From: a virus
DNA length: 64,000 nucleotides
Reading direction: 5' to 3' (one strand)
Virus record (IMG/VR): IMGVR_UViG_3300027917_000038
Span: 11,892 to 75,891 of that record
The notes beneath the pieces were generated by a model that saw only the letters and a program-made list of their open reading frames with translations, did not search any database and was not told the DNA's origin. The position numbers were made by a program, and so were the translations under genes. Positions 25,928 to 60,496 of the stretch are shown in pieces. Within the stretch, counting starts at the first letter, position 1; every line of letters begins with the position of its first letter.

Positions 25928-25970
25928 TCACCTTACTTTATATATATTTTTATAGTTTATAAATATGTTC
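25928..25970 (-). promoter_or_regulatory. Putative archaeal late promoter and RBS for the capsid genes
   Basis: Minus strand reads TTTATAAAC...TATATATAAAGTAAGGTGATAAAATG (TATA-like boxes plus AGGTGA RBS). Confidence 0.5.
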
Positions 25971-25971
25971 A

Positions 25972-26316: not shown

Positions 26317-26318
26317 CT

Positions 26319-26873
26319 CTATACACTTTTTGCATAATCTTCATACACCTTTCTTATTGATTTTATTATTTTTTCCCACGCAAATACAAATGTGGATTTT
26401 AATATGGATTTTCTTCTTTCATGAATAGGCCCAAAATTAAATATATGAGTTTTTCCTGCTCTTGTTGTTTTAGCTCTTGTTGTTGAAGATTTTGGTATTT
26501 CAAATTTTAACACGTTTTTATCTATCTTTATTGTTGTGTTTGCTTTCATAAGTCCAGATAACTCATGAACATTTGTATGACCAGTTCTTATCTTATATCT
26601 TAAGTAATTAGCTTCGTAAGGATCTCCTCTTGGTGGAATACCAGTTGTTTTCATTAATCTCCTCATTTCTGCGGCATCTTTAACTGAATATAAATCTGTT
26701 AAATTATTAACATATATTTTAGCCCATAAAACATTTAAAAGATGTCCTTTAGCCGCATCCAAAGCATCCAATTTTGGTTTACCTGATTTAATCACTTCAA
26801 TAAATTTTTTTGCTTGTTGTAAATCCATTCTTACTTTAACTATAATAATCAGCTCCTTTTTTTGGCTCTTCAT
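26319..26873 (-). CDS. Hypothetical virion morphogenesis protein
   Basis: Basic protein in the head module after the portal gene. Confidence 0.35.
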   Translation of the reverse strand: MKSQKKELIIIVKVRMDLQQAKKFIEVIKSGKPKLDALDAAKGHLLNVLWAKIYVNNLTDLYSVKDAAEMRRLMKTTGIPPRGDPYEANYLRYKIRTGHTNVHELSGLMKANTTIKIDKNVLKFEIPKSSTTRAKTTRAGKTHIFNFGPIHERRKSILKSTFVFAWEKIIKSIRKVYEDYAKSV

Positions 26874-27338
26874 CTAAAATATCTAAATTAAGTCTATCTT
26901 TTAGTTTTGCTGTTGCCTCTATTTGATCAGCTATCCATGTTGCTATTGCAGATACGCTTTCATTCAAAACTTTAAAACAAGTATTAAAATGTTCGCATCC
27001 TTGACATTCAAATTTGTCCTTTTCCCTCATACATCCAAGTAAATTTTCAGCAATATCTTCAAAAACTTTTATATTAATTATTTCTGCTGGTTTTTTATGA
27101 CCCATTTCCCTTATATTCACTTATGTTTATTAATATCCAATTAATTCTTTTACACAATAAATTAACTGAATTTTTAATAGATTTTATTATATCTCCTTTA
27201 AAATTATTAGCCATTGCGTCATAGAAATAAGAAAGAACATAATCGTATTCTCTTTCCAATTCTTTCGATATTCGTATTACAAATCCTATATCAACTGTTT
27301 TACATCCAAGCAGTTCATTCATTACTGCTTTGTTAAAA

Positions 27339-28799: not shown

Positions 28800-28984
28800 T
28801 TCCTTTAAAAAATTTCATTAATTCTTTTAATATTTTTTCCCAATATATATTTTTTCCATTTTGTAAAGATGTAAAATCTATTGGTTCAATCATTACGAAG
28901 TCAAATGTAAATTCTTCAACGATTGGTTCGTCAAGTTTTATACAGGGAATTCCATCAACTTCTATAATTTCAACATCTTTTTTT

Positions 28985-30610
28985 TTAGAATCCATAGCTG
29001 AGTTTTACTCCTCTAATTTTTAATTTATCTAAATATGTAGGTCTTCTTCTATGTCCCCAACATGATAAAGCAAGCGCAATAACTCTATCATCATGAAACG
29101 ATTGTGTCCCATATTTTATATAATCTGTACCTGGAAGTTCATCACATTCAAATCTTAACAATTCTTCTCTTAAGTTTCCTATTTCTGGTTCGCTTGCTGG
29201 CGGTATTTCAATTCTGTTTTGTGCAAATGTTTTTATTAAATTTCCTATCAATTCAGGTTTTGTAATTCTTGAGATTATAAATCCTTTTTGATTTTGTCGA
29301 TTGTCAAAAATTTGAGTTCTTACTGGTATTCCATTCGATCTACGAAGATTTTCAAGATCTTCTTGCAATTGTTCTACTAAAGGATCTCCTAATCCAGTAG
29401 CATCTGGTACTATCCATGTTGGATTAAAAACTTGAATAACTTTTAATAATTTATCTCTAATATATCTATATGTTTTGTGTTCATCATATTCACCAGCAAC
29501 TGACATTCCAAAATCAAGAATTATTCTTCCAGATTTTTTGTCTAAATGTGTGATATAAAAGCAAGAAGCGTCATGTTTTCTTCCATAATCAACACCGAGG
29601 ACATAATCAATGTCTCTTCTTGCTCTAAAGATATTTTTTAATTTTTTATTTGTACATGCTTTAAGCCATTCTCCTAAGAAAACCATTGATGCGTCAGAAA
29701 TGATTTCTCCTAGGTATTCTTGTCTTGCCGTTGGACTCCAACCTGCTTCATCAAGCAATTGCTTTACGTACCATTTAGGTCGAAGACCATCATTCCAAGC
29801 GTCTACGTATGGAGTTGCGAATAGTCCAACACCGTATTTATAATCAAATGCTCCACACATTGGACATTTGTGCATATCTTCAATAGGCATTTTTCCATTT
29901 GGAAATCTGTCTACATTAAATGCGGCTTGTGGGAATCTTTCTCCACATGCTTTACAAATTATATCACGAGTTTCTAATCCTTTGTAATAATATTCTATGA
30001 ACTTTCCTTTTGGGCCTTTTGGAGTGGAAAGCATTATCCATCTTTCACCGTGAGTAACTGTTGGCATTGCAGATTGAAAAATGATTTTTTCATCCATCAA
30101 ATGAGCTTCATCAACGAATAAAAGGTCGTAAGTACTACCTTCAATTCCATCTGTACAGGGCCAACATTCAACATAACTACCATTTGTAAGTTCTAAGTAG
30201 TCGACTCTTACGCTTTTAGGAATCACATAATCCCAGAAAATAGAGTGTTTTAAGATTTTCTTGATTTTATTAAACAATTTTTTAGATTGTTTCTCAGTAG
30301 CCGCAATAATTCCAATTGCGCAACCAGGTTTTATAACTAAGAGAGAACTTGCTGCGTATGCGCAACCAAGAGTTTTTCCTGTTTGGCGAGGCCAAATCAT
30401 TACAACTCCTCTTGGAATTTTCTCGACTTCGTCAAAATCATATTGACTTAAAGGAAATCCAAATTGAATAGAGTCAATTGCGTCTTTTTGAGGCTGTGTT
30501 AATTTGATAGGACGAGAACGATTCTTTTCTTCGTGAAAAAATCTCTCAATAAAACTAACTGCCCTGAACATTACATCGTCTATTCCTTGTAACTCTTCGA
30601 GGACTTCCAC
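28985..30610 (-). CDS. terL: Terminase large subunit
   Basis: Q-motif (LTQPQ), Walker A RQTGKT, Walker B LFVDEAH, motif III LSTP, and nuclease GVDYGR, DATGLG and HDDRVIALAL. Confidence 0.95.
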   Translation of the reverse strand: MEVLEELQGIDDVMFRAVSFIERFFHEEKNRSRPIKLTQPQKDAIDSIQFGFPLSQYDFDEVEKIPRGVVMIWPRQTGKTLGCAYAASSLLVIKPGCAIGIIAATEKQSKKLFNKIKKILKHSIFWDYVIPKSVRVDYLELTNGSYVECWPCTDGIEGSTYDLLFVDEAHLMDEKIIFQSAMPTVTHGERWIMLSTPKGPKGKFIEYYYKGLETRDIICKACGERFPQAAFNVDRFPNGKMPIEDMHKCPMCGAFDYKYGVGLFATPYVDAWNDGLRPKWYVKQLLDEAGWSPTARQEYLGEIISDASMVFLGEWLKACTNKKLKNIFRARRDIDYVLGVDYGRKHDASCFYITHLDKKSGRIILDFGMSVAGEYDEHKTYRYIRDKLLKVIQVFNPTWIVPDATGLGDPLVEQLQEDLENLRRSNGIPVRTQIFDNRQNQKGFIISRITKPELIGNLIKTFAQNRIEIPPASEPEIGNLREELLRFECDELPGTDYIKYGTQSFHDDRVIALALSCWGHRRRPTYLDKLKIRGVKLSYGF

Positions 30611-30996
30611 TTATTTAACATCTCTTCTCTTTTATCAGGATCGACTCCTAAAACTTTAACGATTAGTTTGGCTTGAAGTTTAAGTTTTTCTTTTTCAGCC
30701 TCTTGTTGAATTTCTCCTCCTCCCATTTTCCACATATCGTCTAAGAAGTGTCTCATTTCTGTAATCCATTTTAAGAGTTGTGGGTGCATGTATGTCTTTT
30801 GACCTATGATGTTTCCTTCTTCGTCTATGAGTTGGTCTATTCTTTCATCTTTAAGAAGTTTATTTATGACATCCTGTACCATCTCATATCCTTTTGTCAT
30901 CTCCAGAGCGATGTTTTTTAGGAGGGTGTCTTTATCACTATGCTTATCTAGTGGATAATTCTTTTCCTTTTCAACTATTTCGTTTTTAGTTTCCAT
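30580..30996 (-). CDS. Probable terminase small subunit
   Basis: Helical 138-aa protein overlapping the terL start; MHPQL motif. Confidence 0.55.
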   Translation of the reverse strand: METKNEIVEKEKNYPLDKHSDKDTLLKNIALEMTKGYEMVQDVINKLLKDERIDQLIDEEGNIIGQKTYMHPQLLKWITEMRHFLDDMWKMGGGEIQQEAEKEKLKLQAKLIVKVLGVDPDKREEMLNKWKSSKSYKE

Positions 30997-31105
30997 AATC
31001 CTAAGTGTATAATGTTGTATTCATTTATAAATATGATAGGACATGTTTAAATATTTAAAAATTATAACATAAGTAGAGTATAAAAATTTATACGAGTTGA
31101 TTTTA

Positions 31106-31255
31106 ATGAAAATGGTAGGAATAAAAATGAGTGATGAGCTACACAAAGAATTTAAGAGTTTTTGTCTTATGAGGGATACGAATATGTCAGAAGAATTAAG
31201 AAGTTATATAGTTTTTTGTGTGGGTGAGATGAAAAGACGTAAAAAAGAGGTATAA
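31106..31255 (+). CDS. Ribbon-helix-helix DNA-binding protein, 49 aa, not in the ORF track (MKMVGIKMSDELHKEFKSFCLMRDTNMSEELRSYIVFCVGEMKRRKKEV)
   Basis: Alternating beta-strand, SDELHKEFK helix, then NMSEELRSYI helix: CopG/ParG RHH pattern; divergent from the terminase operon. Confidence 0.75.
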   Translation: MKMVGIKMSDELHKEFKSFCLMRDTNMSEELRSYIVFCVGEMKRRKKEV

Positions 31256-31327
31256 TTTTTAAAAATTCGAACCAAAAGTGCAAAAAAGTCGTAAAAATGT
31301 GGCATTTTGTTTCAAAAAAGTAAAATA

Positions 31328-31479
31328 AGTTTTAAATTTGTAAAACCCCATAGTCGGGGGCAAAAATCTCATTTAAATATGAATTTGCTGGTAAAGAGAT
31401 GGGGATGAGAAGTATGAAAAGACAGAGTTTTAAATTTGTAAAATCCCTATAATACTGGGGGGGTGCGACAAATTTGAAA
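31328..31479. repeat. Direct repeat AGTTTTAAATTTGTAAAA (31328-31345, 31426-31443), each followed by a C-run...G-run; the second is part of the 52-bp site at 31428-31479
   Basis: Read directly from the sequence. Confidence 0.85.
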
Positions 31480-31646
31480 TGAATTCTAAATAGATAAAAT
31501 TAATTTTAGGATCGGTTTATTAATTTCATATTCTTGAAAATCAAATTACAAAAAATTTTATGGTGTGGGGGTTTAAGGCGACTCGCCCAGGTCTCTCAAA
31601 CAAAAGCATGCTTACGTATAAAATTTCAACGTTTTCAAGATTACGT

Positions 31647-32323
31647 GATCATTTTCGATCATGTATTATAAAAAAAGAAAAAAAAATATTTGAATCCGAT
31701 CAAATAAATGATCGGAAACTAGCATTTGATTATCATAATTGATCATCTATTTTTCAGATTTCTCAATCATTTCGATCAAATATTTCATTAATTTATCATT
31801 TTGACTAGCTAATCTGATCAATTTCGATATCTTGAAAACTAGTTTTTTATCATTAGTTTTCTTAATTTGATCTTTCGAAATATTAGATTCTTTCATAGTT
31901 TTTTCGAATTTCGAAAAATTCTTGTAGATATATGATCGAATCTTTGATTCAGATTGATCTTTCAATTTGACGTTTTCGATCATTTGAATATCATTTAAGA
32001 TCAAAATTCCGATCAATTCTGATCTTTTAGCGATTTTTTTCGACGTCTTTTGATTAAGATCGTCATATAAATCATTGATCTTAGTCATAGGAATATCAAT
32101 TTTGATCATGAATTTGATCAAATCCGTTTGACGTTTTTTCGAAAATGATATCCATTTTGCATCAAATTGACTAGTCTTTATGATATTTTCGATCTTTTTA
32201 TTCATGTTATCGATCATCTCATAGAGATTTTTGATCACACGTTTATCATTCTTGATCATTATTATTCATTATTCTGATCATTTTGACGATCAAGATCGAT
32301 CGTTTTAATGATCATTTTTGATC
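31647..32323. other. GATC-dense, GG/CC-depleted compositional island
   Basis: 28 GATC sites in ~680 bp by hand count; 6 GG/CC dinucleotides in 31621-32400. Confidence 0.9.
31747..32259 (-). CDS. Lys/Ile-rich hypothetical protein encoded inside the GATC island
   Basis: 170-aa open frame; BRE-TATA-like CGAAATCTTTATAAA upstream on the minus strand at ~32372-32386. Confidence 0.55.
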   Translation of the reverse strand: MIKNDKRVIKNLYEMIDNMNKKIENIIKTSQFDAKWISFSKKRQTDLIKFMIKIDIPMTKINDLYDDLNQKTSKKIAKRSELIGILILNDIQMIENVKLKDQSESKIRSYIYKNFSKFEKTMKESNISKDQIKKTNDKKLVFKISKLIRLASQNDKLMKYLIEMIEKSEK

Positions 32324-32611
32324 ATTGCGAGAATTTAGAAACGTGAATCAAGATACTAGAATGAATTATCGTTTATAAAGATTTCGATTTGAGAAGCATG
32401 AGCCGGGGTCACAAAAGTGTAAAAACATCACTCGAATTTTAGTGATTTTTAGGACATTAAAAAAAAATTCGCACTCGAAAAAATCACATAGAGAAAAGAC
32501 GTACGCTTACGCCATCGCACTCCCTCGTCCATTCTACAAATGTCAATCTCTTCCTGACAATATTTATTTGACAACTTGCTACTTACTATAATATCTCTCA
32601 CATCAAAAAAT

Positions 32612-32628
32612 AGAAAAATTTATAAATG
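32612..32628 (+). promoter_or_regulatory. BRE/TATA-like promoter of the first early gene cluster
   Basis: GAAAAATTTATAAAT about 60-70 bp upstream of the ATG at 32688. Confidence 0.45.
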
Positions 32629-32687
32629 ATTATTCCTACTATTAATATAATAAGAGTTCAAATAAAATTCTCTTATTTTAAAAAATT

Positions 32688-35443
32688 ATGAGCATGAATA
32701 AAAAAATGTCATCATATAATTGGCCAGATATTAAAAACATAAATTCTCAGCATACAAATTCGAATATCGAGGCAATCCTAAGAAGACTTGATGATATCTA
32801 CAAACTAGCTCCGGAATCCATCAATGCTCTCACAAATATCATTCTCGCTGACATCAAGAAATTCCAAAAGCGAATAGAACTAGCTGATAAATCTGATGTT
32901 GATATATGGCAAATCTCTAATATGCCAAGATTTATCTATCGACAAGTAAAAAATAACAATCCTAGAATCACATTAGAATATATCAACGCGTTAATAGGAG
33001 GACAAATCTTAAATCCAAATAGCGTATACATCGAAAGAGCAACACGAATATTAAAGCAAAAGGAGGAAACAAAATGACTAACCATGAGATTTTATACAAG
33101 GAAAAAACAGCAAAATTTTCATTACCTAAGCCGCTAGTCTTGTCTCTACTTTTCATGGCGAATGAATGCATGTCAAAGATTTACGAAGAGAAATATATGG
33201 AATCAGGAAAAGCATTTTATCTCAATGTTGCTGAAAGATATGCTAATAAATTAGACAATCTAAATAAATGCGTACAAATGATAAGATTGTAGGTGAAATA
33301 CATGAGTGAAGAAGACAAGAAATTTATGGCACAAAAATTAGAGATACTAAGATATATCACGCCTCTAATCGACGTTCCGTTGAAATACAAGAAATCGGTT
33401 CTTACATTATTAGAATTAACAACGAATCTAAAAGATAACGTTCAATTATCCACGCGTTTAGAAGAGCTGTATGGAATCTACAAAGCTTTTTATAAACACG
33501 TGCAGGGATTACGTCAAATGGAGCATTGTCTTGAATGCATGTCTCAAATCAAATACATAGCGAATCATTTCCAAATCGAATTTAACACAGAATTTATTAT
33601 AAACATGTGAGGCGATTATGTTGAGAATAAACCAAATCTTAAATCACGAGAGATCTTCTTGCGCGTTGATCTCTCACATTTTTTATATAAAACAAAATTA
33701 TAAATTGGAGGAAAAATTATGGATTTTATAAGAGTTTGTAATTTAATGACCATAACTTCTAAGCGAGCTACTGGAACAAATATAGAACAACAACTAGCTA
33801 TGCATGCTTTAAATGGTATTATGCCTGAAGTTTTCACAGATCTTTACGAGATAACAAGAAGGAATCTCCATCTTGATAAAAAACAAATACTAAAAGAGAT
33901 ACAAGAATTAATCGACGATTTCGATAACGACAAGCCTACACAATGCGAAGAATGTCCACTAGCCGCTCTATGCCGAGGTGAAAATTGTGATTAAATTAGA
34001 CAATCTAAATGAATTGGAAGGAATGGAATTTGTCAGAATTGAATCCTACAAGAATTATATATACGCTGTAGGAAAATTCTATGACAACGGAAAAGATACA
34101 TACAAATACTACACAATTCAATGCTACAGGAATTCAACGATCACAATTCAGCCTCTCTCTTTTTTTGTTGATGAAAATCACATAAAGAGATTAACGCTAC
34201 TGCAATTTGTAGATGAACAAACACGCGTTCATATAAATCCAATAAAAAATGAATGGAGGTGGCGAAATGCCGAATGAAATTGTTTGTCCAAAATGTTTGA
34301 ATCGTCCAACTAAAGAGAGAGAATCACGTGAGGTTATACACATGCACGAGAAAACATTTTGTATGCGCATTCGAGAGAGATACTGGACTTGCTACGAATG
34401 CGGAATAAAATACAAGCAAAGAACTTTGTTTAGTGAAATTGGATTAGTTAAAGAAGACAAATTATTTGAATTGGAGGAATAAAAATGTCAGATGGAAGAA
34501 TTGCTTTTATAACACATTTAAAAGAATACATAGATTTCGAAAAAATATGGAAGCATTCTCAAGAACTTGTAGATAAGGTTGGTGAGATTCTCGACCAAGT
34601 AATATCCGTACAAAACCATTTATATGGATTAAAAGGAAACAAATTCATAGAGGGATTTGGATTAGAATCACAATATAAGTGGGCAGCCAAATATTTAAAT
34701 GACGCATCTGATCAATTGGAAAAGCTTCAAAACAGCTTAATAGATGAGTTTAATAGAATACATGCATTAGAATTGGAGGAAAAAAATGACAAAGAAAAAT
34801 GAACCAAAAGGGCCCGCAATAGTCCGTTTCTTGTCAAAGAATATCAACAGACGAAGTCCTACAATGGAAGATATTAAGGGCGTGATTCTAGGAGAAAACA
34901 AAGAATGGAAGCAATGTCCTAAATGTCATGGATACGGAGATTACTTTGATAAAAATACCAAAACTTATAGAAATTGTACTTGCGAAAACGGATTGGTGAG
35001 ACGTGAAGAATAAAATGTATATTAAGAACAGTCATCCAGCCTTTTATGGATTCGAGAAATTGGAATTTCATAAATGCGATGCTGAGATACAAAACAACAC
35101 TATTCTGGTGCTACATTATCTACAAACGGAAAGGAGCAGGACTAAGAAACTACAGGCGTTCTTTCTGGATGATTTAGTATCAACAGATTCAGTCGAGATT
35201 GTAGGAACATTAGCACAATTAGATATACCAATTACATATACCAAGGGTGATTAAATGTACTATTTCGAACACAAAGATGAAGAAGAACAACAACAGAGAT
35301 TCAAACGTGATTATTTCAAATGTATAATCGAATTGGATAATTGGTACATGGAAGAATTAGACTTACAGCCTAAAAAGATACGTAAGAAAATTATAGCAAC
35401 GAACGCTATTTACAAAATGACTTTAGCACGAAGAAAAAACTAA
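32688..35443 (+). CDS. Cluster of ~10 small early hypothetical ORFs, several with Cys-pair zinc motifs (e.g. 34249-34482, 34786-35013)
   Basis: Tightly packed co-oriented ORFs with GGAGG/GGTG RBSs; no family recognised. Confidence 0.6.
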
Positions 35444-35451
35444 AAAAATAG

Positions 35452-35490
35452 GGACATGCGTGCGTAAGCATGTCCTAAAATTCTTTTTTT
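35452..35490. terminator. Hairpin between convergent genes (GGACATGC/GCATGTCC) flanked by A and T tracts
   Basis: 8-bp stem at 35452-35459/35468-35475 between stop codons at 35443 and 35491. Confidence 0.55.
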
Positions 35491-37983
35491 TTATTTTGAT
35501 GTTAATAATTTAGCCTCTTTAACTTCACATTCTGCTTCATACAATAAATTGAATATGTCGTCAAATATATCTTGCTCATTCATTTCAATGGACATTTTCA
35601 ATGCCACATTAATCACTTGACTTATTTTTATATTTTGTTGCGGATAAATCGACACTCGTTTTTTGTTCAATGGATTCTTGTAGATTAAATCTTGATTGCC
35701 TATAACGGTTCCATGAGTAAAAGCAGTCCAGCCATCCCATTCATCTTGTAAATCAATACAGTTTTCTTTGAATTGGTGATAGAATTTATGCATAAATTCA
35801 TCGCCACGTTTATAGATCTTCACTATTCCGCCTATGTTGAGATTATTAGACATAACCTTGCAATAACTAACTACATCTCTTTGTATTATTATTCTACGAT
35901 AATAATTCACATCTACATAATTATGTGCCATCTCTTTGATAATCTCTCGCAAGAAATCTTTTGAACGTTTTATCTTTCTTGCTCTGACTTCACTTAAAAG
36001 CACTCTGTATTTTTTCAATGTCTTATCAATCTCTTCCAGCACTCCCAAATTGCCTAATTTCTTTTGTAGTTTTTGTATTTGTTTGCCAATGCTTTTGGCT
36101 TTCTTGCTATTGCCGTGATAGTTCTTCTTGTTCTTTTTCAAAACTTTTATATCTCTAACAATTTCTAATATCTGTCGTTTCAAATCTATGTACTTCCTTT
36201 TCTGTTTCATCAAGTAAGCGATTAATCTATGTAAAGCATGACTATTTGGAATAAATTTTAAGACATCTTGAAAGAACTTCCTGAAATATTTGTTTCTAAC
36301 ATCATCGTCTTTTATTTTGCTACATTTATCAAGATATAAATGTCTCGCATCAATATCAGCAATAAAGAAATCCATGTCATTCTCACCAGTTTCATATACA
36401 CATTGATTTATTATATTGCCACCTCGAATCCATCCAGTCTCTCCAAAATATTGTTGATGATGAAAACTTGCATAAACTTTGTAATAATTGTTTTTACTTG
36501 TCTCTTTAGAAACAATTTTTTTCTTATTGATATATCTAGGTTGTGGATAATATAATTGGTAAGAAGTAATGGCAGTATTAGTCATTTCGTAATTTCCTAT
36601 TGGATCATGAATTTGTCTATCTGATAACCCCTTAATTCCTAGTTTGTGGCAAAATATCCTAAAGTTTCTTATATAATTTTGTTGAATATCCGGATTGCTA
36701 TGATAAGGAAAAACAAAATCTACATCACAACACTCATCTTCTATTTGTAATTTTTCTTTATACAAATTATCTTCAACATCATCAAGAAACCCTGTATGAA
36801 ACCATTTCTTTGGAGCTAAATAATCGTACTGAATCCATACTTTGTTCCTTATTTGTCCTTGTTTGACAATGCGTACATGCTTATTGTTCTCCAATTTCTT
36901 AATGAAACGTTGATATCTCTTTGGTCTAACTGAAATACAGGCAAATAAGAAGTCATTAAGATCTATTGTAGGGGTTTCATCACAATAATCAAATGCCATC
37001 GGAACATGTCGCATTATCTTTCCACTGTCAGCCCATATCTTATTGTCATTCAATTGTTCTCCATATCGTTCTTTTAACACAAAATCTTCATATTCCTTGC
37101 GTTTCTTTTTCATCCAGAGTTTAATCTTGCTGTTCTTTACGGAATAGTTATTATTCTTAATGTGTTGAATAATATGTTTATCTATGGAACAATCATCTAA
37201 GAAATTGTTAGTTGTCTTGATTTGTTCTTCTAAATCAATTTCATAATCACCACTTATTCGCCATTGTTTCTTTAAGAAACGAGCATATTCTTCCATGCTC
37301 ATTACGCCTGTAGGTCTATTCATTTGTTGTTTGTTTTCGTTTATTTTCTCTTTTATGTATCTGATATATTCCAAATGATCGACCAGTTCAAAAACATCTT
37401 TTGCTATCTTTTTCTGCTTGTCTAATTCTTCTACTAATTCTCTGTTCCAAAGTGTTTCAGAATCCACTTGAATTTCTATTGTTTTTGTTTTAGCTGTTAT
37501 CTTCTTTCCATCCCAACTTCCTGGGACAATCCTCGTAGCCACTTTCACTTTCTCTGTTATTGTATAATTGCTCTGAATCCATTGTGGAATCTCTTCACAA
37601 ATAGTCTTATTATCTTTTGTGATTATCTCGCATTTCTGAAGGCAAGTAATCGCATTCTCCACAATCTTCTGAAAAGCTGGAGTTCTTTTTTTGTCATGAT
37701 ATTCTTGTTTAAGAATTTTGTTTAATTCTTTTTTGACCATGAGCTGAATGTGATCAATACTACATTTCCTAAGAAATCTGTTGCTTGAACGCATGTTAAA
37801 TAGACCAAAGAAATCATTGGACTTTCTAACAGTATTAGTTCTAATGTACTTATAAATAATAGCATTAATAGTCTTTTTGTTTCCCTTCATCACTTGGTCG
37901 CATAATCTGTCAAGAAGCGTTGCGTCCAATTTGAGCATTTTTAATTTAAAAACAGTATTCAATTTTAAGCTTGTTAAATCCAT
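35491..37983 (-). CDS. Large orphan protein (830 aa)
   Basis: Long ORF with GAGGTG RBS; no family confidently recognised. Confidence 0.75.
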   Translation of the reverse strand: MDLTSLKLNTVFKLKMLKLDATLLDRLCDQVMKGNKKTINAIIYKYIRTNTVRKSNDFFGLFNMRSSNRFLRKCSIDHIQLMVKKELNKILKQEYHDKKRTPAFQKIVENAITCLQKCEIITKDNKTICEEIPQWIQSNYTITEKVKVATRIVPGSWDGKKITAKTKTIEIQVDSETLWNRELVEELDKQKKIAKDVFELVDHLEYIRYIKEKINENKQQMNRPTGVMSMEEYARFLKKQWRISGDYEIDLEEQIKTTNNFLDDCSIDKHIIQHIKNNNYSVKNSKIKLWMKKKRKEYEDFVLKERYGEQLNDNKIWADSGKIMRHVPMAFDYCDETPTIDLNDFLFACISVRPKRYQRFIKKLENNKHVRIVKQGQIRNKVWIQYDYLAPKKWFHTGFLDDVEDNLYKEKLQIEDECCDVDFVFPYHSNPDIQQNYIRNFRIFCHKLGIKGLSDRQIHDPIGNYEMTNTAITSYQLYYPQPRYINKKKIVSKETSKNNYYKVYASFHHQQYFGETGWIRGGNIINQCVYETGENDMDFFIADIDARHLYLDKCSKIKDDDVRNKYFRKFFQDVLKFIPNSHALHRLIAYLMKQKRKYIDLKRQILEIVRDIKVLKKNKKNYHGNSKKAKSIGKQIQKLQKKLGNLGVLEEIDKTLKKYRVLLSEVRARKIKRSKDFLREIIKEMAHNYVDVNYYRRIIIQRDVVSYCKVMSNNLNIGGIVKIYKRGDEFMHKFYHQFKENCIDLQDEWDGWTAFTHGTVIGNQDLIYKNPLNKKRVSIYPQQNIKISQVINVALKMSIEMNEQDIFDDIFNLLYEAECEVKEAKLLTSK

Positions 37984-38517
37984 TAGTGTGTTACCACCTC
38001 TGTAATCAACCCCACCACTTCCCCATCCTTTGTTTTATAATTTATATACATAATTATTTCAACACAAAATCTTTTTTGTTATATCTATCCAACTTTTCTT
38101 CATCTGTTAGTTTCTTATATCTTGTCAATAAATCTCTAACAAAATAAATAAAGAGTGTATCCATCGTTGTTTCGACAACATCTGCTACTGTATCTAAAAC
38201 AGATTGAAAAACACTTGGATAATATCTGTTCAATTTATTTAATGCTTCAATTAATCTCATTTTTAATCCTCCATCCAGTCGCACACAACATTTCCGTCTT
38301 TGTCAATTCTCCAGCTTGGGCACGCTATATACTTTTCTAATGTGCCAATAATATCTATCGCTGTTGCTCCTATCTCATTGTTATCAGTTTTATCCATTAT
38401 GAACTTAGCCATGTCACGAATATCATCAAGATCTGCTTTGTCGACTGGAATTACAATTTTATTATCATTCATGTTTCATCATATAAATTTGTTTTCTATA
38501 TACTAGTAATGAAGCAT

Positions 38518-38534
38518 TCTTTATAAATTTTTCG
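38518..38534 (-). promoter_or_regulatory. BRE/TATA-like promoter for the minus-strand unit (38472 to 35491)
   Basis: Minus strand CGAAAAATTTATAAAG about 45-60 bp upstream of the ATG at 38472. Confidence 0.5.
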
Positions 38535-39745
38535 ATCACCAGTTTAATGAGATCTTTCAAGGATTTAACCGAAATTCAAAAATCTTAAAATCCTAAGATA
38601 TATTTTTTAAATTCGGAAAATAGATTTGATGGAATGATTCCCAAGTCTCACAGATTTGCTCGTTTTTTTCTCGAATATATAGATTAAGAAAAGTAATTTA
38701 ATAAAAACAATTTTAATTAACATAAATAAAAATTTGGAGGATTTAGTATGCCAGAAAAAAAATTGACCAATCAACAGATTTTGGATAGGACGAAGGCAAA
38801 GAGCTATATTATGTTGCCACAAGATCACATCGTTAAAGTCGTCTCACAATTGAATGCGGAGCAACAAAAGAAATGCTTTGGAAACGAAAAAACATTAAAA
38901 CCACTCAACCCAGTACAAGCGGCAGGTATCCTAACTGTCGTAGAGGGATTGGATAAAATCGATCCACGACCAATTAGCAAGATTCCTATTGACGACCAAA
39001 GAAAAATAATCAAAGAGCAATCCGCAAAAAACGACGCTGTCAAGAAATTCTTGGAAGAAAACGGCTATTGGGAGCAATCTCAAATACTTAAGGAAACTAC
39101 AGTTGCTGGTGATTTCAGTCCATCCGGACTTTGGTCTGTTATTGACGATATGATTGCTGACATGGATTTCAGCAGACCAAAAGAATAAACACAATAATTT
39201 AATTTTTTTTTTCGTTGATGTATCCTCTACAAAGTAAAAGTAACATAAAAAACAAGAGGGAAATATTATGAGCACACCAGAATTTAAAGACCTTTTTAAT
39301 AAAGATGTCTTAAAGGATTTTGTTAAGAAACGAACAAAAGAAGCATTCACAGAAGTAGATAAAGAACTAAAAAAGTTTGTAGATTTTTTCGAAAGTGAGG
39401 GAAAATGTCACAGAGGAGAAAAAGTATTTGGATGTTATCGTAGAGATGTAATAGCATTCACGGAACTTCTTATTGGAAAGAAACTTCCAATGCCACAAGA
39501 CTATAATGGGGCTTGTATCAAAAACGGGGAAACTGGAAAGAAATTATATCTTGTTACTAAATCAAAACATTATATAGATCATCCAACTGATATTCTCACA
39601 GTATTAGATGCCAGTGGAAATGAGAGGGAATTAAAGAAAACTCCTACTCCAGCCACAGATGAAGAAATAGACAAATTTTTTGAGGATTTTAAAATTACAA
39701 AGGAAGTAGTACGTTCAATATTCAACTTCTAATATTTTTTTTCAC

Positions 39746-39882
39746 GAGATTGGTTGTAGTTCGACAGCGACTGTTAAATAAGAGAGGATCGACAATATGA
39801 AATATGACAAATTGCCAACAATAAAAAGGAACAGTTGCCGAACAATGGAACAAAACGGGAGGTTCGACCCCTCCCAATCTCA
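39746..39882 (+). ncRNA. tRNA-like RNA (acceptor stem and T-arm) with long internal stem-loop; tmRNA-like architecture
   Basis: GAGATTG/CAATCTC acceptor, GGAGG-TTCGACC-CCTCC T-arm, internal GTTCG/CGAAC and GCGACTGTT/AACAGTTGC helices. Confidence 0.65.
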
Positions 39883-40021
39883 TCCTAAAGCAAAAGTGTA
39901 TAACTATGAAGTTTTACAGAATATTTTTTGACAAAATAATAGAACATTTCTCAAAATTCGAAACATTAACAGATTTTGAATTAAAAGAACTATTAAAACA
40001 AGCATTTGATGAAATGCAATC

Positions 40022-40808: not shown

Positions 40809-40882
40809 GGGCTCTTAGTGTTACTGGACGAGCATACTCATCAGATGTATGAGAGGGGTTGGTTCGATTCCAACAGAGCCCA
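40809..40882 (+). tRNA. Cloverleaf tRNA-like gene, nominal anticodon GAT (Ile), with non-canonical anticodon loop
   Basis: GGGCTCT/AGAGCCC acceptor, GTGT/GCAT D-stem, CTCAT-CAGATGT-ATGAG anticodon arm (A33 instead of U33), GTTGG-TTCGATT-CCAAC T-arm. Confidence 0.7.
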
Positions 40883-45523: not shown

Positions 45524-46087
45524 ATGGGCTTAGATATGTATTTAGACGCACAAAGAGGATTTTATGATTCACAATGGAATAAAGAAGAAACAGAAGAATC
45601 CAAAGTGTGTAAAAAAATAAGGGAAATAATTCCAGAAATATTCAAAAGCGGTAATCTTAACTACATTAAAATAAAATTTGAAGTTGGATATTGGAGAAAG
45701 GCAAACGCAATTCATGCTTGGTTTGTTGATAATGTCCAAGAAGGTGTAGATGATTGTAGAAATTATCGCGTCAGTAGAAACAAATTAAAAGAACTCTTAG
45801 CAATCTGCAAAGAGGTTTTAAAAGAATCAACACTTGTTAAAGGAACAGTGAAGGCTGGATGGAAAGGCAAAGCAGGAGGTGGATTAGAACCTATACTCGA
45901 AGACGGAGAAAAAATTGTGGACTCCAGCGTTGCTGAAGAAATCCTACCAACTGCAGATGGATTCTTTTTTGGTAGCACAGATTACGATGAATTTTATATT
46001 AGTGATGTTAAAGCAACAATTAAAATAATTGAAAAGGCTTTAACATTACCAATAGAATGGACTTTTTATTATAACTCAAGTTGGTAA
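45524..46087 (+). CDS. Conserved viral hypothetical protein (MGLDMY...YWRKANAIH type)
   Basis: MGLDMYL, YWRKANAIHAWFV, GFFFGSTDYDE and YYNSSW; start moved to the internal ATG. Confidence 0.7.
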   Translation: MGLDMYLDAQRGFYDSQWNKEETEESKVCKKIREIIPEIFKSGNLNYIKIKFEVGYWRKANAIHAWFVDNVQEGVDDCRNYRVSRNKLKELLAICKEVLKESTLVKGTVKAGWKGKAGGGLEPILEDGEKIVDSSVAEEILPTADGFFFGSTDYDEFYISDVKATIKIIEKALTLPIEWTFYYNSSW

Positions 46088-46339
46088 TTAAAATGACTGA
46101 ATATTTAGCTTGTTATGAGTGTTGTGGTAACATAATTGAAGAAACAGAGATTATGTTTCCTTGTCTTAGGTTTAAGGGAAAAGATGTTGAATTCCCAGAT
46201 GATTGTCCAAAAAAGGCAAGAGGGGTAGACATAAAAGAAACCCCTAGATGGAAAAACATTTCAAAAGAAGCATTTAATATATATTGGTTTATGAATAAAC
46301 AATTTGGAACAAGAGTAAGATTTTTCGAGGAAGAAGAAA

Positions 46340-46597
46340 ATGGCAAGAGGAAAGGGATTTAGTAGTCATGGAAGTTTAACAAAAGCAGGAAGAGTAAGAT
46401 TTGAAGCAACCCCTGAAGTAAAAAGAACTGGTGTTAATTCAAGAAAAAAGAAAATACCAAGAGTAAGATACAGAGAACTTTACAACAAAAGAATTGTAAA
46501 AGAGAAATATGGAGGACAACCAAACAGCATTGGAGCAAATAAACAAAAAAGAGGAAACAAAAATGAGAGATCCAAAAAGAATAAAAAGAATTTGTAA
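46340..46597 (+). CDS. rps30e: Ribosomal protein eS30 (S30e) homologue
   Basis: SHGSLTKAGRVR..TP...RKKKIPRVRYRELYNKR matches the eS30 signature HGSL.KAGKVR.QTP...PR...R..Y..R. Confidence 0.88.
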   Translation: MARGKGFSSHGSLTKAGRVRFEATPEVKRTGVNSRKKKIPRVRYRELYNKRIVKEKYGGQPNSIGANKQKRGNKNERSKKNKKNL

Positions 46598-46805
46598 GTT
46601 ATTAGAAGAAAAGTGGTTAACAGTACCAGATCAAAGATTAGGTCAATTCTTACTTAATTATGTTTTTGGTAGAAATCCACATCATCCAAAATATGACAGT
46701 TATATATTTTTCCGTGAAGATGATATAACGGAGGAAATATTAGATGTATTGTTCGGAGAAGAATGGTATAAAGAAATTGAGAAAAGAAAGAACCCGACCA
46801 TTTAA
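46563..46805 (+). CDS. Conserved viral hypothetical protein (MRDPKRI type)
   Basis: MRDPKRIKRI...W...PDQRLGQ...EDD pattern; start moved to the internal ATG. Confidence 0.6.
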   Translation: MRDPKRIKRICKLLEEKWLTVPDQRLGQFLLNYVFGRNPHHPKYDSYIFFREDDITEEILDVLFGEEWYKEIEKRKNPTI

Positions 46806-48876
46806 ACCGACATTTAGAAAAAAATGGGTGCAAAAAAAATGGAAGAAGAATTACCGATGTTAGGGAATAACGAAGGACAATGTCCTAAGTGTGGAAGTAC
46901 TAATATTCATTACACAATTGAAGATGAAAATGGGGCTGTCGCAATTTTATGGGATCAAAAAGTTGGTAGTTATTACGCTAAATTGAGATGTAAAGATTGT
47001 GGAGCACCTTTTAAATATTTTTACAATTTAATATTTACATATTCAAAATACAATTACGAATAATAAAAAAGGTTTTGTAAATGGAAAAAAAGGAAAAAGA
47101 ACCAATAATGAAAATGAGTATGAAAAAATTGTCAGCATTACTAACAAAAATGTTAGCTGAGCAACAAATGCCTGAATTTGCCAAAGATCCGAACGTGTTT
47201 TTAAACACACTTGGTTCAAAATTAATGTCAGCAATAGTGGAATTTTGGGAATATGGAAGCAATGAAATTTTTCTTATCTTAATTCCTAAATATATTGAAC
47301 AACTTAAAAAATACAGAGACGCATTGTACGAAGAAAGAGAGGAACAAATAAAAATAATAGAAGAATTAGCAAAATTGTCAGATATATCACCAATGGTTTT
47401 CATAGAACTAATATCATTCTTCTTATTAATACAAGACAACAGAGACAGAATGGGAGTTGTAAACATTAGAGATTTCAACGATAGGAAAGAACCTGGTGAA
47501 TACCTAACAGATAGATTTATTTGTATGTTTAGAATTGCTGAAGAATACATTAAAGTCTATGATGGAAACCAAGACAATATGACAACCTTTTTAGATATTG
47601 CATGGAATGAAATTAGAGAGGAATTTGATGACTTATGAGAGTAGGTTGTTTTTTAGAAATAAACAAGACAAAAAAGAAGGCATATTTCTTTGGATTTGGA
47701 GAATATCTAGGAATGGAAATTCCAGATGAAAACGCTGGTGGTTTATGTCAAATAGGTAGATTATTAGGCAAACCAAATCCAAAAATTCTGCTTGATTCCG
47801 GCAAGATAATATGGGGTGGTGAATGCTGGTGGTCAGAAGAAGCAGAATGTATTGCGGAAATTGCAGAACTTGAAAATGCTGACTTTAATATTATTAATGT
47901 TGATATTGACGACATAAGAAAAAAATGGAATGAAGAATAAATGTCCGAAGAATACATAAAAATAGTGAGTCGCACACATCAGATCTTTCGAAGTCGGAGC
48001 ATCAAATTCATCACAAACGGCGAAGTAGTCGACACCATTCCTGTTCCAGATGAGCAAATTGTATGTGACGCATGCAATGCAATGATTCTGGATCAGGAAA
48101 TCAAGCTTTTGTGTTATATTGATGATGGAATTGAATATGTGTGGGGAGCAATTTGTGATAAATGTCACAAAAAATATCACTCAAAATTAAAAGTGGTGCA
48201 TGATGAATAAAGGGTATATTATAATACACAAAAGTCCTCTTAAAGATGACATGGAAAAAATGAAAAGTAGAGATCCAGACCTTTACAAAATGATGGCTGA
48301 TACATTTAAATGGAACTGTAATTCTTATCCTCAATCTTATGATATTCTTGTAAGAAGGTTTTCACGTAAACTTCAAAAAGAATTAGAATCAATGTTATAT
48401 CAAGTTGATTGTCCAGTAGTACCTCGGTATTTAAGAAGACATCCATTTTATAAATATGTTGGTTCCGAAGATACTGGGCATGTTGATTTTATTAATGAAA
48501 GTGTTGGAAGATTAATAGGTAAATTAGAAAAGAATGGATTTAAAACAATAGTGGTTGAAGATGACTTATTCGACAAAATCCAAGCAAGAATTAAGAAACA
48601 TCGCAAAGAAGATGTACAAAGGAGAAATATTAACAACACTCCAACTCAATGAAAGTGAAATTGATACTGTTTTTGGAATGATGAAATTATTTCACTGGGA
48701 CAAAACAAGAGAAATAATGGAACACGGTCTTGGTTGTATCTATGGACACATGAAAGATGCCGCTCCAATGCATTGTAATGGGCTTCCTATGTTTTTTGCT
48801 TGGCAATTTCTTGATAAACCAGACACAAAAAAACTTATTAAAATTTATAACAAATTATTAAAAAAGATGCGTAAAT

Positions 48877-49446: not shown

Positions 49447-50310
49447 ATGAAAAATGTAAAAAATCAAGTAAGATATATTCAACAATATAACGAATTCAAT
49501 CATTTAGTAAAATGTATTGAAAGTGCTCCAACTGGAGAAACATTTGGCATCCTATTAATAGGGCCTCCGGGCACTGGTAAAACTCTCTGTGCAATGGATT
49601 TAGCACGACATTATAATTCTAATTATATAGTTGTAGATGGAAGTCCACAAACAGACCGAAGAGATTTGGAAGGATGCTGGGAAATAGTTAAAGGAAATAC
49701 AGTTTTTAATAAAGGGCCTCTTTACCAAGTAATAGAACAGGCAAACAATGAAGGAATAGCTTTCTTAGTTTTTAATGAACCAAACGCGGTAAATCCATCG
49801 GAACAAATTAGTTTTAATGCACTCATGACAGAGAATCATATTAACTTGCTTAGCAACGCTGGTAAAAGAATTGAAATTGAACCACATGCTAAACTTATTG
49901 TAATAGGAACTATCAATTTAAATGTTCTTGGAATAAATGATCTACAAGAAGCATTTGATGATAGGTTCCTTGTTAATTGGGAATTTGAATACCCAGCAAA
50001 AAAGAAAGAAGCAGAAATAATAAAAAAAATGGCTGGTTGTTCAAAATCTCTTGCTGAATTAATTTCTGAATTGGCATACCAATTGAGAGAAGCAGCAATG
50101 AAAGATTTTTCACTTAAAAAACCCTTTTCAACAAGACATGGTGTAAATTTTGCCAAAATGATTTGGGCAATGAAAAGGAAATACATAAGAGAAAACATCC
50201 GAACAATGATAGTTAGCAAAATAGCAAAAGAGAAAAGAGAAAAGGAATTCATTTCCCAAATTTTAGATGGATTGGACTTTAAGAAACGATTGTGGGATAT
50301 ATTAAAATGA
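49447..50310 (+). CDS. MoxR/CobS-like AAA+ ATPase
   Basis: Walker A GPPGTGKT, GPL, Walker B variant LVFNE, TIN sensor I, AFDDRF Arg finger and STR sensor II. Confidence 0.9.
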   Translation: MKNVKNQVRYIQQYNEFNHLVKCIESAPTGETFGILLIGPPGTGKTLCAMDLARHYNSNYIVVDGSPQTDRRDLEGCWEIVKGNTVFNKGPLYQVIEQANNEGIAFLVFNEPNAVNPSEQISFNALMTENHINLLSNAGKRIEIEPHAKLIVIGTINLNVLGINDLQEAFDDRFLVNWEFEYPAKKKEAEIIKKMAGCSKSLAELISELAYQLREAAMKDFSLKKPFSTRHGVNFAKMIWAMKRKYIRENIRTMIVSKIAKEKREKEFISQILDGLDFKKRLWDILK

Positions 50311-52067
50311 GTGATCCAAAGTTATTAAACAAAACAACAAAAAAAGCGCTGAATGATGTAGCAAAAAGAATTTCTGGGAATAAAGAAATAACATTACGCT
50401 TTAGTGGAACTTATGATGTTACGGATGGTCAGAAAATTACCATACGAAGAGACGCAGAAAAAAACCTTCGACTAAGCCAAGGACTTGTGGCTCATGAAGC
50501 AGGTCATATTGGCTACGGGTCATTAGGAAACATTATTAAAGAACTAGTATTTCATTTAACAAACAAATATAAATTGGATGAAGAAACTGCTCGTTCTTTA
50601 ATGAACATGGTTGAAGACGCAAGAGTAAATAAAATAAACAATAGAGTTTTCCCTGGTTTTTATCGTTCTCTTAGAGAATGGTTTTATATGAATGTGTTGC
50701 CAGAAATAAGACAACAATCTTTCCATCCATTGCTTCGTGATATAGGACTATATTTTGAGGATTTTGATTGGACATTTAATAATGCGGAACATAAATTAAA
50801 TGACGAACAATTGGATTTAATTGAAACAGCAAAACTAATTTCTGATAAGTTTATTTCACCAGCATCATCTGTTTTTATTTGTAAATTACTTGCTGAATTG
50901 TTTAAGAAAAAACAAGAAGAAGAGGGTGGGAAAAAACAACGACCTTCTCCTTCTCCATCAGCAGACGCACGCACAGATCCATCAGCATCACAAAAAATCT
51001 ATGACCCAAATTTTAAGAAATCACAGGAATATAAAGATGACTACAAATTCATGCAAGACATGAACAAAATGTTGGATGAAGAATTCAAAAAATTGATAGA
51101 ACAATTGTTAAAATTAGAGGCTTGTGAAAACGAAGACAATAAAGAATGTGAAGGGTCTATACAACGCATGAGAGACTTTCTTGAAGAACAAGAAAGAAAA
51201 TTAAGCAAGTACATACAAGAAGTTATGGTAACTAGAAGACCTTATAGAAAAATAGAAAGACGATATTATTGTAGGAAGGCTAGAGACTTAGAAAAATATC
51301 CACCAACAGCTCTTGAAATAATGAGTGAATATAAAAGGGAAATAGAAACATTAAAAAGATACTTAAATTTATTGGAAAAGAAGTCAGTTAAAAAACAAAA
51401 ATTTGGTAGGTTAAATAACGACTGGATGAAAGCAATTGTAGGAGATTATGAAAAATGTTTCTCAAGAAAGAGGTACGAAAGATTACAAAGATTAACTCTC
51501 TTAATAGATATTTCTGGAAGTATGACTGGCCCAATGGATGAAGGCGATTATGAAAGATGTCACAAGGAATCAAGAAGACATCTTTCTAAATTATCAGTAG
51601 CAAAAATTTGTTCTGTTATTTTTGGTGAAATATTTAAAGACTTTTGTGATTTAAGAATTGTTCTTTTTACTGGTGTAAAAGATGTTGTTCATCATGTTAT
51701 CAAGGATTTTAAAGACACGGTTCATCCACGCGATTATGATGAATTTGGATATGATCAAATGCAGGGAGAAAATTTAGATGGATTGTCTTTAATATACGAG
51801 GCAGAAAAAATAGGGAGCGATGGAATAATTATTATTGTTTCAGATGGATACCCAGCAGGAGATTATTATAGTCTTGGAGACGCTATTACAGATGTTAATA
51901 GAGCAAGAAAACTGTGTAAATTTATTTTTGCCTTTAGTATTAAGGCACGAGGAGATTATTTAACAGATATGTATGAGAAACATTTTATTATTGTTAAAGA
52001 TAAAGAGGAATTTAGAGAAAAGCTTCTTAAATTTGGAAGAATTTTAATGGAGCAATATTTAAGATGA
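50292..52067 (+). CDS. vWA-domain protein with N-terminal HExxH (CobT-like partner of MoxR)
   Basis: HEAGH, EDARVN, MIDAS DISGS and VSDGYP. Confidence 0.85.
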   Translation: MGYIKMSDPKLLNKTTKKALNDVAKRISGNKEITLRFSGTYDVTDGQKITIRRDAEKNLRLSQGLVAHEAGHIGYGSLGNIIKELVFHLTNKYKLDEETARSLMNMVEDARVNKINNRVFPGFYRSLREWFYMNVLPEIRQQSFHPLLRDIGLYFEDFDWTFNNAEHKLNDEQLDLIETAKLISDKFISPASSVFICKLLAELFKKKQEEEGGKKQRPSPSPSADARTDPSASQKIYDPNFKKSQEYKDDYKFMQDMNKMLDEEFKKLIEQLLKLEACENEDNKECEGSIQRMRDFLEEQERKLSKYIQEVMVTRRPYRKIERRYYCRKARDLEKYPPTALEIMSEYKREIETLKRYLNLLEKKSVKKQKFGRLNNDWMKAIVGDYEKCFSRKRYERLQRLTLLIDISGSMTGPMDEGDYERCHKESRRHLSKLSVAKICSVIFGEIFKDFCDLRIVLFTGVKDVVHHVIKDFKDTVHPRDYDEFGYDQMQGENLDGLSLIYEAEKIGSDGIIIIVSDGYPAGDYYSLGDAITDVNRARKLCKFIFAFSIKARGDYLTDMYEKHFIIVKDKEEFREKLLKFGRILMEQYLR

Positions 52068-59419: not shown

Positions 59420-60496
59420 ATGCGCTGGTGTCCTGAGTGTAAGGAAAGATCCGCTAAATTTGAAGTATGCACTAATTGCGGGTTAGTGTTTGAAGACAAA
59501 CCTATTGATTATCGTCCATCACGTAGAGATTTAGACAACCCTGAAACAAAAACACATAATATGGAAACATCCCAGTTTTTAAAAAATTTAAAAACACAAA
59601 CGAGAATAAATCTACGGGAGGTAAAAAATTCCGATTTAAAAAGAGCAATGAAAAAATTCTATTACAACTGGAGAGAAAAAAGAGGTTATGAAATTAAGAA
59701 GGAAATGAAAAGAATTTGCTCATTGCTTGGATTAACTAAGGATTTTTATGCCTCTTGTATTTATTCTTATTTTAAAATCTGTAAGTTTAATGAGAAAGCG
59801 GATGTTAATATTTTCAGGGGTGGAGGAAAAGTCTCTTTAGAAGTGATTGCTCAAGGTATTATTTATTTGGAAATTAAAAAACAACAATTGCCTTTCACGT
59901 TATACGATTTCGAAAAAATTGAATGTGAAACTAAAAAAGTTTCCGATTACTACACACGATTAATAAAGGAAATGAATATCAAAATCAAACAAATACATCC
60001 AAGAATTTTTATCGAAAGAATAATAGGTACATTAGAAATTACAATAAGAGAAAAGAGTTTTCTTACTTTATGTAGTAAAACTTTTCTTGAAAATATTATG
60101 GAAATAGAAGAAGAAAGCAATTCCATAACACGTTTTAGAAATCCTATTATTACTGCCGCTGTGTGTGTCTATTTATTGTCAAATAAAATATTTAAAATCA
60201 CACAAAAGAAGATTTGTGAAATTGCTGGATGTGATATTAGAACTCTTAGGAAAAGAATAAATGAAATAAAAGAAACAATACAATCTAATATACAATTATT
60301 CGGCTATGGTGAGGAAGATTTTGAAAAAGCATTAGAATGGGATATGTTCTCACCATTTGTAAATAATATGAAAGAGAATTGTGAATTTGATGAGTTATTA
60401 ATAAAAGGATTAATTCATCCTGAATATAGAATGGAGTTATTAAAAACAAAAGAAAAATTTAAGGCTGTTTTTTATGACACTACCGAAAAGCATTGA
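59420..60496 (+). CDS. tfb: Transcription initiation factor IIB (TFB) homologue
   Basis: N-terminal zinc ribbon CPEC...VCTNCGLV, two cyclin-like repeats (RICSLLGL; PRIFIERI...AAVCVYL) and HTH TQKKICEIAGCDIRTLRKR. Confidence 0.85.
   Translation: MRWCPECKERSAKFEVCTNCGLVFEDKPIDYRPSRRDLDNPETKTHNMETSQFLKNLKTQTRINLREVKNSDLKRAMKKFYYNWREKRGYEIKKEMKRICSLLGLTKDFYASCIYSYFKICKFNEKADVNIFRGGGKVSLEVIAQGIIYLEIKKQQLPFTLYDFEKIECETKKVSDYYTRLIKEMNIKIKQIHPRIFIERIIGTLEITIREKSFLTLCSKTFLENIMEIEEESNSITRFRNPIITAAVCVYLLSNKIFKITQKKICEIAGCDIRTLRKRINEIKETIQSNIQLFGYGEEDFEKALEWDMFSPFVNNMKENCEFDELLIKGLIHPEYRMELLKTKEKFKAVFYDTTEKH

Follow-up and report, generated by a model that had tools for sequence, protein, structure and literature searches.

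Virus-encoded ribosomal proteins are known as a class, and most of them are the bacterial types bS21 and bL12. Why, then, would a tailed virus from marine sediment carry a gene for eS30, a protein restricted to TACK and Asgard archaea and eukaryotes (PMC11698992)? We took up this question for a linear IMG/VR record of 75,891 bp (CheckV completeness, 77%), bases 11892–75891 of which constitute the stretch of 64,000 nucleotides analyzed here (hereafter, the window, to which all coordinates refer unless a contig is named).

The gene in question occupies positions 46340–46597 on the plus strand and forms an intact frame that opens with an ATG and encodes 85 amino acids plus a stop codon. The preliminary description of this locus had read an intact eS30 signature from the letters and had proposed a search with the Ribosomal_S30 profile as its check. 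In this search, Pfam PF04758 aligned residues 10–58 of the protein to profile positions 3–47 with a score of 31.8 bits (cut-off, 27; E 1.7e-7), bearing out the assignment, and a six-frame search of the whole record with the same profile returned 32.7 bits for eS30. The NCBIfam model NF006817 (‘30S ribosomal protein S30e’) was likewise matched (E 3.2e-13, 49.3 bits), at a score below its equivalog cut-off of 75, and we therefore regard the viral protein as a homologue rather than as an orthodox S30e. The solved structure that matches it best is chain 9fhl_e, the eS30 protein from Saccharolobus solfataricus (E 1.1e-7), with eukaryotic eS30 chains next in line; the alignment lays viral residues 8–56 on chain residues 2–46. 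In composition the protein is strongly basic, with a net charge of +22 and 32% lysine plus arginine.

eS30 is an extended protein whose shape is held by rRNA. In the viral copy, the conserved core takes the long form seen in Promethearchaeia and covers residues 10–66 (46367–46537, plus strand), running from HGSLTKAGRV through GVNS to YGGQPNSIGA; the N-proximal motif H-G-S-L-T-K-A-G-[KR]-V-R is present as HGSLTKAGRVR at residues 10–20. Of 31 alignment columns with 95% or higher conservation among cellular copies, the viral protein retains 24, among them H10, the GVNS block and the GGQ..S block; three of those that differ, seven in total, reflect a single switch at the N-terminus, from M-P-G to G-F-S. 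The core is followed by a basic C-terminal extension (residues 67–85; 46538–46594, plus strand; net charge +8), delimited by comparison with cellular copies: these end about 1–5 residues past the GAKR motif, whereas the viral tail comprises some 19 residues, and at 85 aa the viral protein exceeds the median length of its cellular counterparts (67 aa). The basic extension noted at first sight is thus real.

The gene is tightly interlocked with its surroundings, again as initially described. Upstream, a Cys-rich viral orphan ORF of 93 aa (46081–46362, plus strand), which found no match in about 150 cellular eS30 neighbourhoods, overlaps the eS30 start by 23 nt. Downstream, a viral ORF at 46563–46805 (plus strand) shares its first 35 nt with the end of eS30 if translation begins at MRDPKRI, a start supported by homology to an ORF of a related virus (G403; 51% identity) that likewise begins MRDxKRI; when read from its first ATG (46509), the overlap grows to 89 nt. 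The sequence also offers a possible Shine–Dalgarno-like GAGG at 46327–46330 (plus strand), 9 nt 5′ of the ATG.

The surrounding DNA encodes the hallmarks of a tailed virus. On the minus strand lie genes for the large terminase (28985–30610; phrog_2, E 1.8e-34; PF03237, E 1.2e-10), a portal protein (27339–28799; PF06074 Portal_Mu, 29.5 bits against a cut-off of 23.9), a tail sheath (20206–21645; phrog_205, E 4.8e-5) and a baseplate J-like protein (10692–12527; PF04865, 71 bits), together with a tape measure gene. A putative major capsid protein (23218–24339, minus strand), which matched no family in Pfam and PHROG searches, was assigned by position only; in five related viral contigs it is 76–81% identical and takes up the equivalent place in the structural module. 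eS30 itself sits in a densely packed plus-strand block of small non-structural genes that also holds genes for a MoxR-type ATPase and for a protein of 358 aa that bears a TFIIB-type zinc ribbon at its N-terminus, an archaeal-type transcription factor (59420–60496, plus strand; PF08271, 29.5 bits against a cut-off of 29). The 11.9 kb of the record outside the window encode an ERCC4 nuclease as well as glycosyl- and sulfotransferases and contain no housekeeping operon. Apart from eS30, no ribosomal or other housekeeping family emerged among about 30 larger ORFs scanned over the 75.9 kb, nor were eS26 and eS25 found in this record, which is rated 77% complete.

Both gene junctions are independently documented. 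Logan contigs from three runs of two marine-sediment studies, each assembled separately, cover the stretch at 99% or more, and both junctions are bridged with 0 mismatches by a contig corresponding to 46030–48833 (X1 record 5) and, in the second study, by one corresponding to 46239–46633 (X2 record 11). No joints were reported, and one of the runs may be the source sample; no RNA run was listed as containing the stretch. Because the junctions are crossed in separately assembled contigs of two studies, the gene is not the product of a chimeric join, one of the outcomes that had been named as refuting the observation. Together with the hallmark genes, the overlapping neighbours and the lack of host genes beside it, this upholds the original reading that eS30 is virus-encoded and not a host contig fragment: the gene belongs to a genuine viral genome.

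Three further features of the window were recorded. ARAGORN (with its intron search on) made a single call, a tRNA-Ile (GAT) at 40809–40882 (plus strand), and no Rfam family, tRNA included, reached its gathering score anywhere in the window. The plus-strand stretch 49447–52067 encodes the ATPase (MoxR/CbbQ-type AAA, 287 aa) followed by a 591-aa protein that matched no family, and this pair is kept in two related genomes, G403 and G405. Finally, 35491–37983 (minus strand) encodes an 830-aa protein with no match in Pfam or PHROG and with counterparts in G403 (36% identity over 850 aa) and G405 (32%).

How firmly is eS30 established in this group of viruses? The capsid protein is common to four IMG/VR contigs at 76–80% identity. 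Two of these, both fetched whole, are syntenic with the window across the entire structural module, with the genes in the same order: G403 (99,014 bp, with direct terminal repeats, rated 100% complete) and G405 (99.5 kb, rated complete). A Ribosomal_S30 match occurred in none of the four related contigs, the two complete genomes included. The region around eS30 (approximately 39–49 kb) has few genes in common with the relatives and is hypervariable; G403 does have a homologue of the downstream gene, but with an unrelated ORF of 111 aa instead of eS30 ahead of it. As two complete relatives of about 99 kb do without it, eS30 is an accessory gene, dispensable in this virus group. Within GenBank phage and archaeal-virus records, the terminase had only distant matches (24% identity), so the virus is without a named relative. 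Related viruses retain the TFIIB zinc-ribbon protein (G403, 52.5% identity; G405, 38%); in a set of 5.8 billion proteins its relatives lay on viral contigs only and gave no clue to the host, and the protein may be a virus-specific transcription initiation factor.

To place the gene, we compared it with cellular copies, as the preliminary description had also suggested. A search of one genome per prokaryote species found 229 loci that encode an eS30 relative, and the best 50 of these 229 share 55–71% identity with the viral protein and are mostly titled Promethearchaeota or Promethearchaeia; over the core, identity to Promethearchaeota copies amounts to 65–76%. The long form with its GVNS...[YF]GGQxxSxGA extension is common to the viral protein and the best Promethearchaeota matches, whereas Thor-, Hermod-, Hod-, Jord- and TACK-type copies are shorter and 36–56% identical to it. 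A maximum-likelihood tree paired the viral protein with a metagenomic copy, P0002 (support 100/90), inside the long-form group (97/70), and a second tree, with the N-terminal columns removed, again set it inside the long-form Loki group (98/93); the trees rest on 64–67 columns, which makes the placement meaningful to the level of the long-form group. The phylogeny thus assigns the viral gene to the Promethearchaeia long-form clade. All 69 loci from a JGI metagenome scan were of cellular type, with a GC content of 26–37% (all but one 26–33%) against 31% for the virus. The closest metagenome copies (L093 and L094; 74–76% identity over residues 9–66) are neighboured by LRR, TPR and PIG-L genes. 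These affinities identify the donor lineage as Promethearchaeia (Lokiarchaeia)-type Asgard archaea. None of the other window ORFs matched the roughly 150 cellular eS30 neighbourhoods, so that eS30 was captured alone.

The capture is also an old one. In comparison with each of the cellular copies, synonymous sites have reached saturation (pS 0.6–0.8), and dN/dS between the viral and cellular copies lies at about 0.05–0.3, similar to cell-to-cell pairs, values to be read with the saturation of dS and the mixing of viral and cellular branches in mind. Saturation together with a low dN/dS points to an old capture and to a gene that was constrained for most of its history. This would fit purifying selection on the gene overall.

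The cellular copies raised two observations in their own right. In many eS30 genes of the cellular Loki type, Pro-Gly-Ser-His is preceded by a codon for Ile, Leu, Val or Ser (L010, L016, L017, L020, L021, L023, L029, L032, L040, L044, L045, L048, L097, L106, L131 and L161), and about half of these loci—including L010, L020, L044, L097, L131 and L161—have no in-frame ATG ahead of the motif, suggesting that cellular Loki-type eS30 may initiate at a non-standard codon. At two other loci (L053, approximately 2919–3135, and L155, approximately 5457–5750), tblastn alignments of the cellular eS30 stop right after HGSLTKAG and resume downstream; a small intron or a frameshift would fit these breaks.

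Which organism does the virus infect? The TFIIB-type zinc ribbon, the ERCC4 nuclease and eS30 itself speak for an archaeal host. The Loki-type donor, a viral GC content (31%) that matches Loki contigs, the marine-sediment source and a relative binned in a metagenome-assembled genome (MAG) suggest, more narrowly and by indirect links, an Asgard host that is probably Promethearchaeia-like. This relative, a contig of 14,280 bp (L091; G070:C86), lies as a whole within an Asgard-phylum MAG and is syntenic with the window at 20–31 kb, sharing terminase (74% identity), portal (68%), capsid (81.5%) and sheath (68%). Its GC content is 36.8%, compared with 36.1% for the contig that carries the MAG's eS30; that eS30 is of the short type, and binning constitutes weak host evidence. 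A BLAST search for CRISPR spacers, covering window positions 20001–40000 and 400 Asgard-phylum genomes, gave only short AT-rich chance matches, the best spacer-like one (G402; 30/31 nt) having no repeats around it. To our knowledge, few Asgard viruses are known.

The most telling difference between the viral protein and its cellular counterparts lies in a feature that the preliminary description had overlooked, namely its N-terminus. All 99 distinct cellular Loki-type (long-form) copies begin Met-Pro-Gly-Ser-His, several of them with a non-ATG codon for Met. In alignment with the cellular copies, the viral protein instead opens with a ‘head’ of nine residues, MARGKGFSS (residues 1–9; 46340–46366, plus strand), in place of MPGS ahead of the His: G-F-S falls on the cellular M-P-G columns and five further residues come before. 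The Met-Pro start that is the archaeal signature, and whose Pro2 forms the N-terminus of the mature protein, is therefore missing from viral eS30, with Phe replacing Pro. Projected onto the S. solfataricus structure (9fhl_e), viral S8 aligns with Pro2, and seven viral residues precede the Pro2 position. This derived head makes the viral N-terminus 5–8 residues longer and is not a folded domain like FUBI.

Is this head peculiar to one virus? An exhaustive search of representatives combined with a profile search uncovered five other headed long-form copies, all from metagenomes, bringing the set to six (P0001, P0002, P0031, P0042, P0043 and P0046), whereas 124 of the 145 retrieved proteins have the canonical start. 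Four of the other five display the pattern [KR]-x-[KR]-F-[SA]-G-His and one a variant of it, and all five carry [RK]-[FH]-[SAG] at the cellular M-P-G columns. Half of the headed copies (3/6) share a one-residue insertion after the R/K that follows AG[KR]V, which in the virus reads RFEATP against the cellular RQQTP, and P0002 and P0042 also have long basic C-tails whose sequence is unlike the viral one. In the tree built without the head columns, all six headed copies fall on one side of a branch within the Loki-type group (support 61/0; present in 65% of bootstrap trees). Their clustering corresponds to one change on the tree, a count as low as which was reached in none of 500 label shuffles. 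The grouping is thus not due to chance, and the headed copies may form a single lineage, joined by a weak branch (61/0). Each of the other five constitutes a single-member cluster, and their encoding contigs measure 1.0 kb (P0002), 2.6 kb (P0031), 2.4 kb (P0042), 25.5 kb (P0043) and 6.5 kb (P0046). Genomic context is known for one of the six, the window copy, and it is in that copy alone that the head is seen as viral. Two TACK-type copies with basic heads (P0039 and P0040) were also noted.

Scans of IMG/VR for eS30 yielded no further headed member of the Loki type and just two TACK-type copies, both with a canonical head. These are short genes at L001 10001–10171 (IMGVR_UViG_3300033149_001352; 136 kb) and L002 10019–10201 (IMGVR_UViG_3300021591_000018; 76.8 kb), which encode proteins of 56 and 60 aa with the start MPTHGS (Pfam scores, 26.2 and 47.1 bits, respectively) and sit among small orphan ORFs. 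Neither of the two records matched the terminase and capsid of the present virus; as for a terminase of their own, a weak match was obtained in G002 and none in G001 with the two families tried.

The position of the head bears directly on what the protein might do. In the 2025 cryo-EM structure of the S. solfataricus 30S subunit, eS30 is located at the mRNA entry channel, touching h16, and the N-terminal residue, Pro2, is packed against h44 near the A site (PMC11698992). Pro2 occurs in most archaeal eS30 copies and never in eukaryotic ones; in the eukaryotic N-tail, a conserved His contacts the A-site codon–anticodon pair, and the tail also contacts eEF2 and eIF1A (PMC11698992). This His is retained in the viral protein, as the first residue of its HGSLTKAGRVR motif. 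That additions at the eS30 N-terminus have consequences is apparent from human cells, where late 40S maturation is disturbed if an N-terminal addition to eS30 stays uncleaved (PMC8354635).

We propose the following scenario. A tailed archaeal virus captured eS30 alone from a Loki-type Asgard archaeon and has kept it as an accessory gene, presumably expressed during infection from the plus-strand non-structural block. The conserved core would seat the protein at its normal place, the mRNA entry channel of the host 30S subunit, where the longer basic N-terminus with Phe for Pro2 and the long basic C-tail would set it apart from the host copy. Given the placement of the S. solfataricus N-terminus on h44, ribosomes that carry the viral copy would be expected to have a changed decoding and initiation-factor site, and the outcome could be that viral translation is favoured, or that the supply of eS30 to ribosomes is kept up late in infection. 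The initial suggestion that the virus may replace or supplement host eS30 so as to bias translation thus stays a hypothesis, and the head is the feature that suits it best. We give roughly even odds to the central element of this scenario—that viral eS30 takes the eS30 site on host subunits and alters the decoding and initiation-factor site, much as has been proposed, and in part demonstrated, for phage bS21 and bL12 (PMC6375957). A broader version, which we put forward tentatively and hold to be possible at best, is that headed eS30 might be a virus-borne reprogrammer of ribosomes that goes back to one capture from Lokiarchaeia-type hosts and has since passed between the viruses of such hosts. 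It would enter host 30S subunits, bring its longer, basic N-terminus with Phe to h44 and the A site, where cellular copies always have Pro2, and so alter decoding or aIF1A-dependent initiation for the benefit of viral mRNAs.

A longer N-terminus could equally hinder correct seating or block ribosome maturation. Headed eS30 might accordingly act as an inhibitor or decoy that binds the pre-30S or 30S subunit and blocks the A site, aIF1A binding or late maturation, with the result that host translation is shut off or new ribosome assembly stalls, instead of working ‘viral’ ribosomes being formed. The head does replace the invariant Pro2 that packs on h44, and the human maturation defect was likewise caused by an N-terminal addition that could not be removed (PMC8354635). 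However, the virus itself needs host ribosomes, the head adds merely 5–8 residues and nothing like the folded FUBI domain, the core is conserved as normal binding predicts, and the phage ribosomal proteins tested to date incorporate productively (PMC6375957). We consider this alternative unlikely.

The protein might, alternatively, have left the ribosome altogether and serve as a general nucleic-acid binder, for instance in viral genome condensation or as an RNA chaperone. Basic residues were gained at both termini, the C-tails of headed members are basic and mutually dissimilar, and the gene is dispensable in related viruses, all of which would suit such a role. Yet a non-specific binder would not need the 24 of 31 near-invariant columns that the protein retains, and the gene is located in the non-structural block, away from the virion genes, which renders this use rather improbable.

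It is very improbable that eS30 is a neutral passenger, that is, a captured host gene without a viral role and heading for loss. While its lack in two complete relatives and its hypervariable surroundings are what one would anticipate for such a gene, the frame is intact despite the age of the capture, with a Shine–Dalgarno-like site at the start and the near-invariant core kept, and at least six diverged headed copies make up the lineage. An artefact, whether a misassembly that put cellular DNA into a viral contig or a contig that is really host chromosome, is hardly credible even for a linear metagenome assembly rated 77% complete, as both junctions are crossed by contigs that were assembled separately in two studies, the gene overlaps its neighbours on either side, cellular neighbour genes are missing, the head occurs in none of the cellular copies compared and the roughly 30 larger ORFs scanned include no housekeeping family.

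With virus-encoded ribosomal proteins being known as such, what is notable here is the identity of the protein, eS30, the likely host lineage, and the change at the tail that should reach the decoding site. A viral copy that is altered exactly at its N-terminus provides a testable handle on how archaeal viruses take over translation, and the same handle applies to the archaeal role of the eS30 N-tail, a question left open by the 2025 structural study of S. solfataricus (PMC11698992). For a group of tailed viruses of about 99 kb from marine sediment, eS30 in addition furnishes a host clue, in the form of a Promethearchaeia-type donor. The preliminary description knew of no eS30 in an archaeal tailed virus, and this still holds: we found none in 50,697 GenBank phage and archaeal-virus records, and in the searchable literature, which names no eS30 in an archaeal virus, the published cases are eL21, from Hafunaviridae of haloarchaea (PMC8651126), and bL19, from a virus of Bathyarchaeia (PMC10541130), to which a 2026 provirus survey adds S6e, L15, L15e and L30 and no eS30 (PMC13573593).

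Until now, an eS30 domain had been listed for just one virus, a murine retrovirus that carries an antisense copy of fau (PMC6375957). That copy represents the capture of a mammalian cDNA in antisense orientation and acts via antisense RNA, and thus differs from a translated ribosomal protein of a prokaryotic virus. Closer parallels are eL21 and bL19, each likewise a single ribosomal protein gene in a tailed archaeal virus; these, however, are large-subunit proteins from viruses of other host phyla, and eS30 is named in neither paper. Phage bS21 and bL12, which have been shown experimentally to enter host ribosomes (Mizuno et al. 2019, PMC6375957), resemble viral eS30 in being small, exchangeable, host-acquired proteins that are encoded as single accessory genes of tailed viruses and are proposed to replace the host copy. 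They are bacterial, occupy other ribosomal sites and have a demonstrated incorporation, whereas viral eS30 is of the archaeal/eukaryotic type and is expected on the mRNA entry and decoding side of the subunit. Its closest solved relative, S. solfataricus eS30 (PDB 9fhl and related entries), provides the expected ribosomal position of the viral protein; it is a short TACK form of 52 aa that starts at Pro2, while the viral form has seven residues before this position and Phe for Pro. Closest of all are the cellular eS30 proteins of Promethearchaeia (approximately 67 aa), which share the core (65–76% identity), the HGSLTKAG motif and the GVNS...YGGQxxSxGA extension, and from which the viral copy is distinguished by a head in place of Met-Pro-Gly, a one-residue insertion and a basic tail of about 19 residues.
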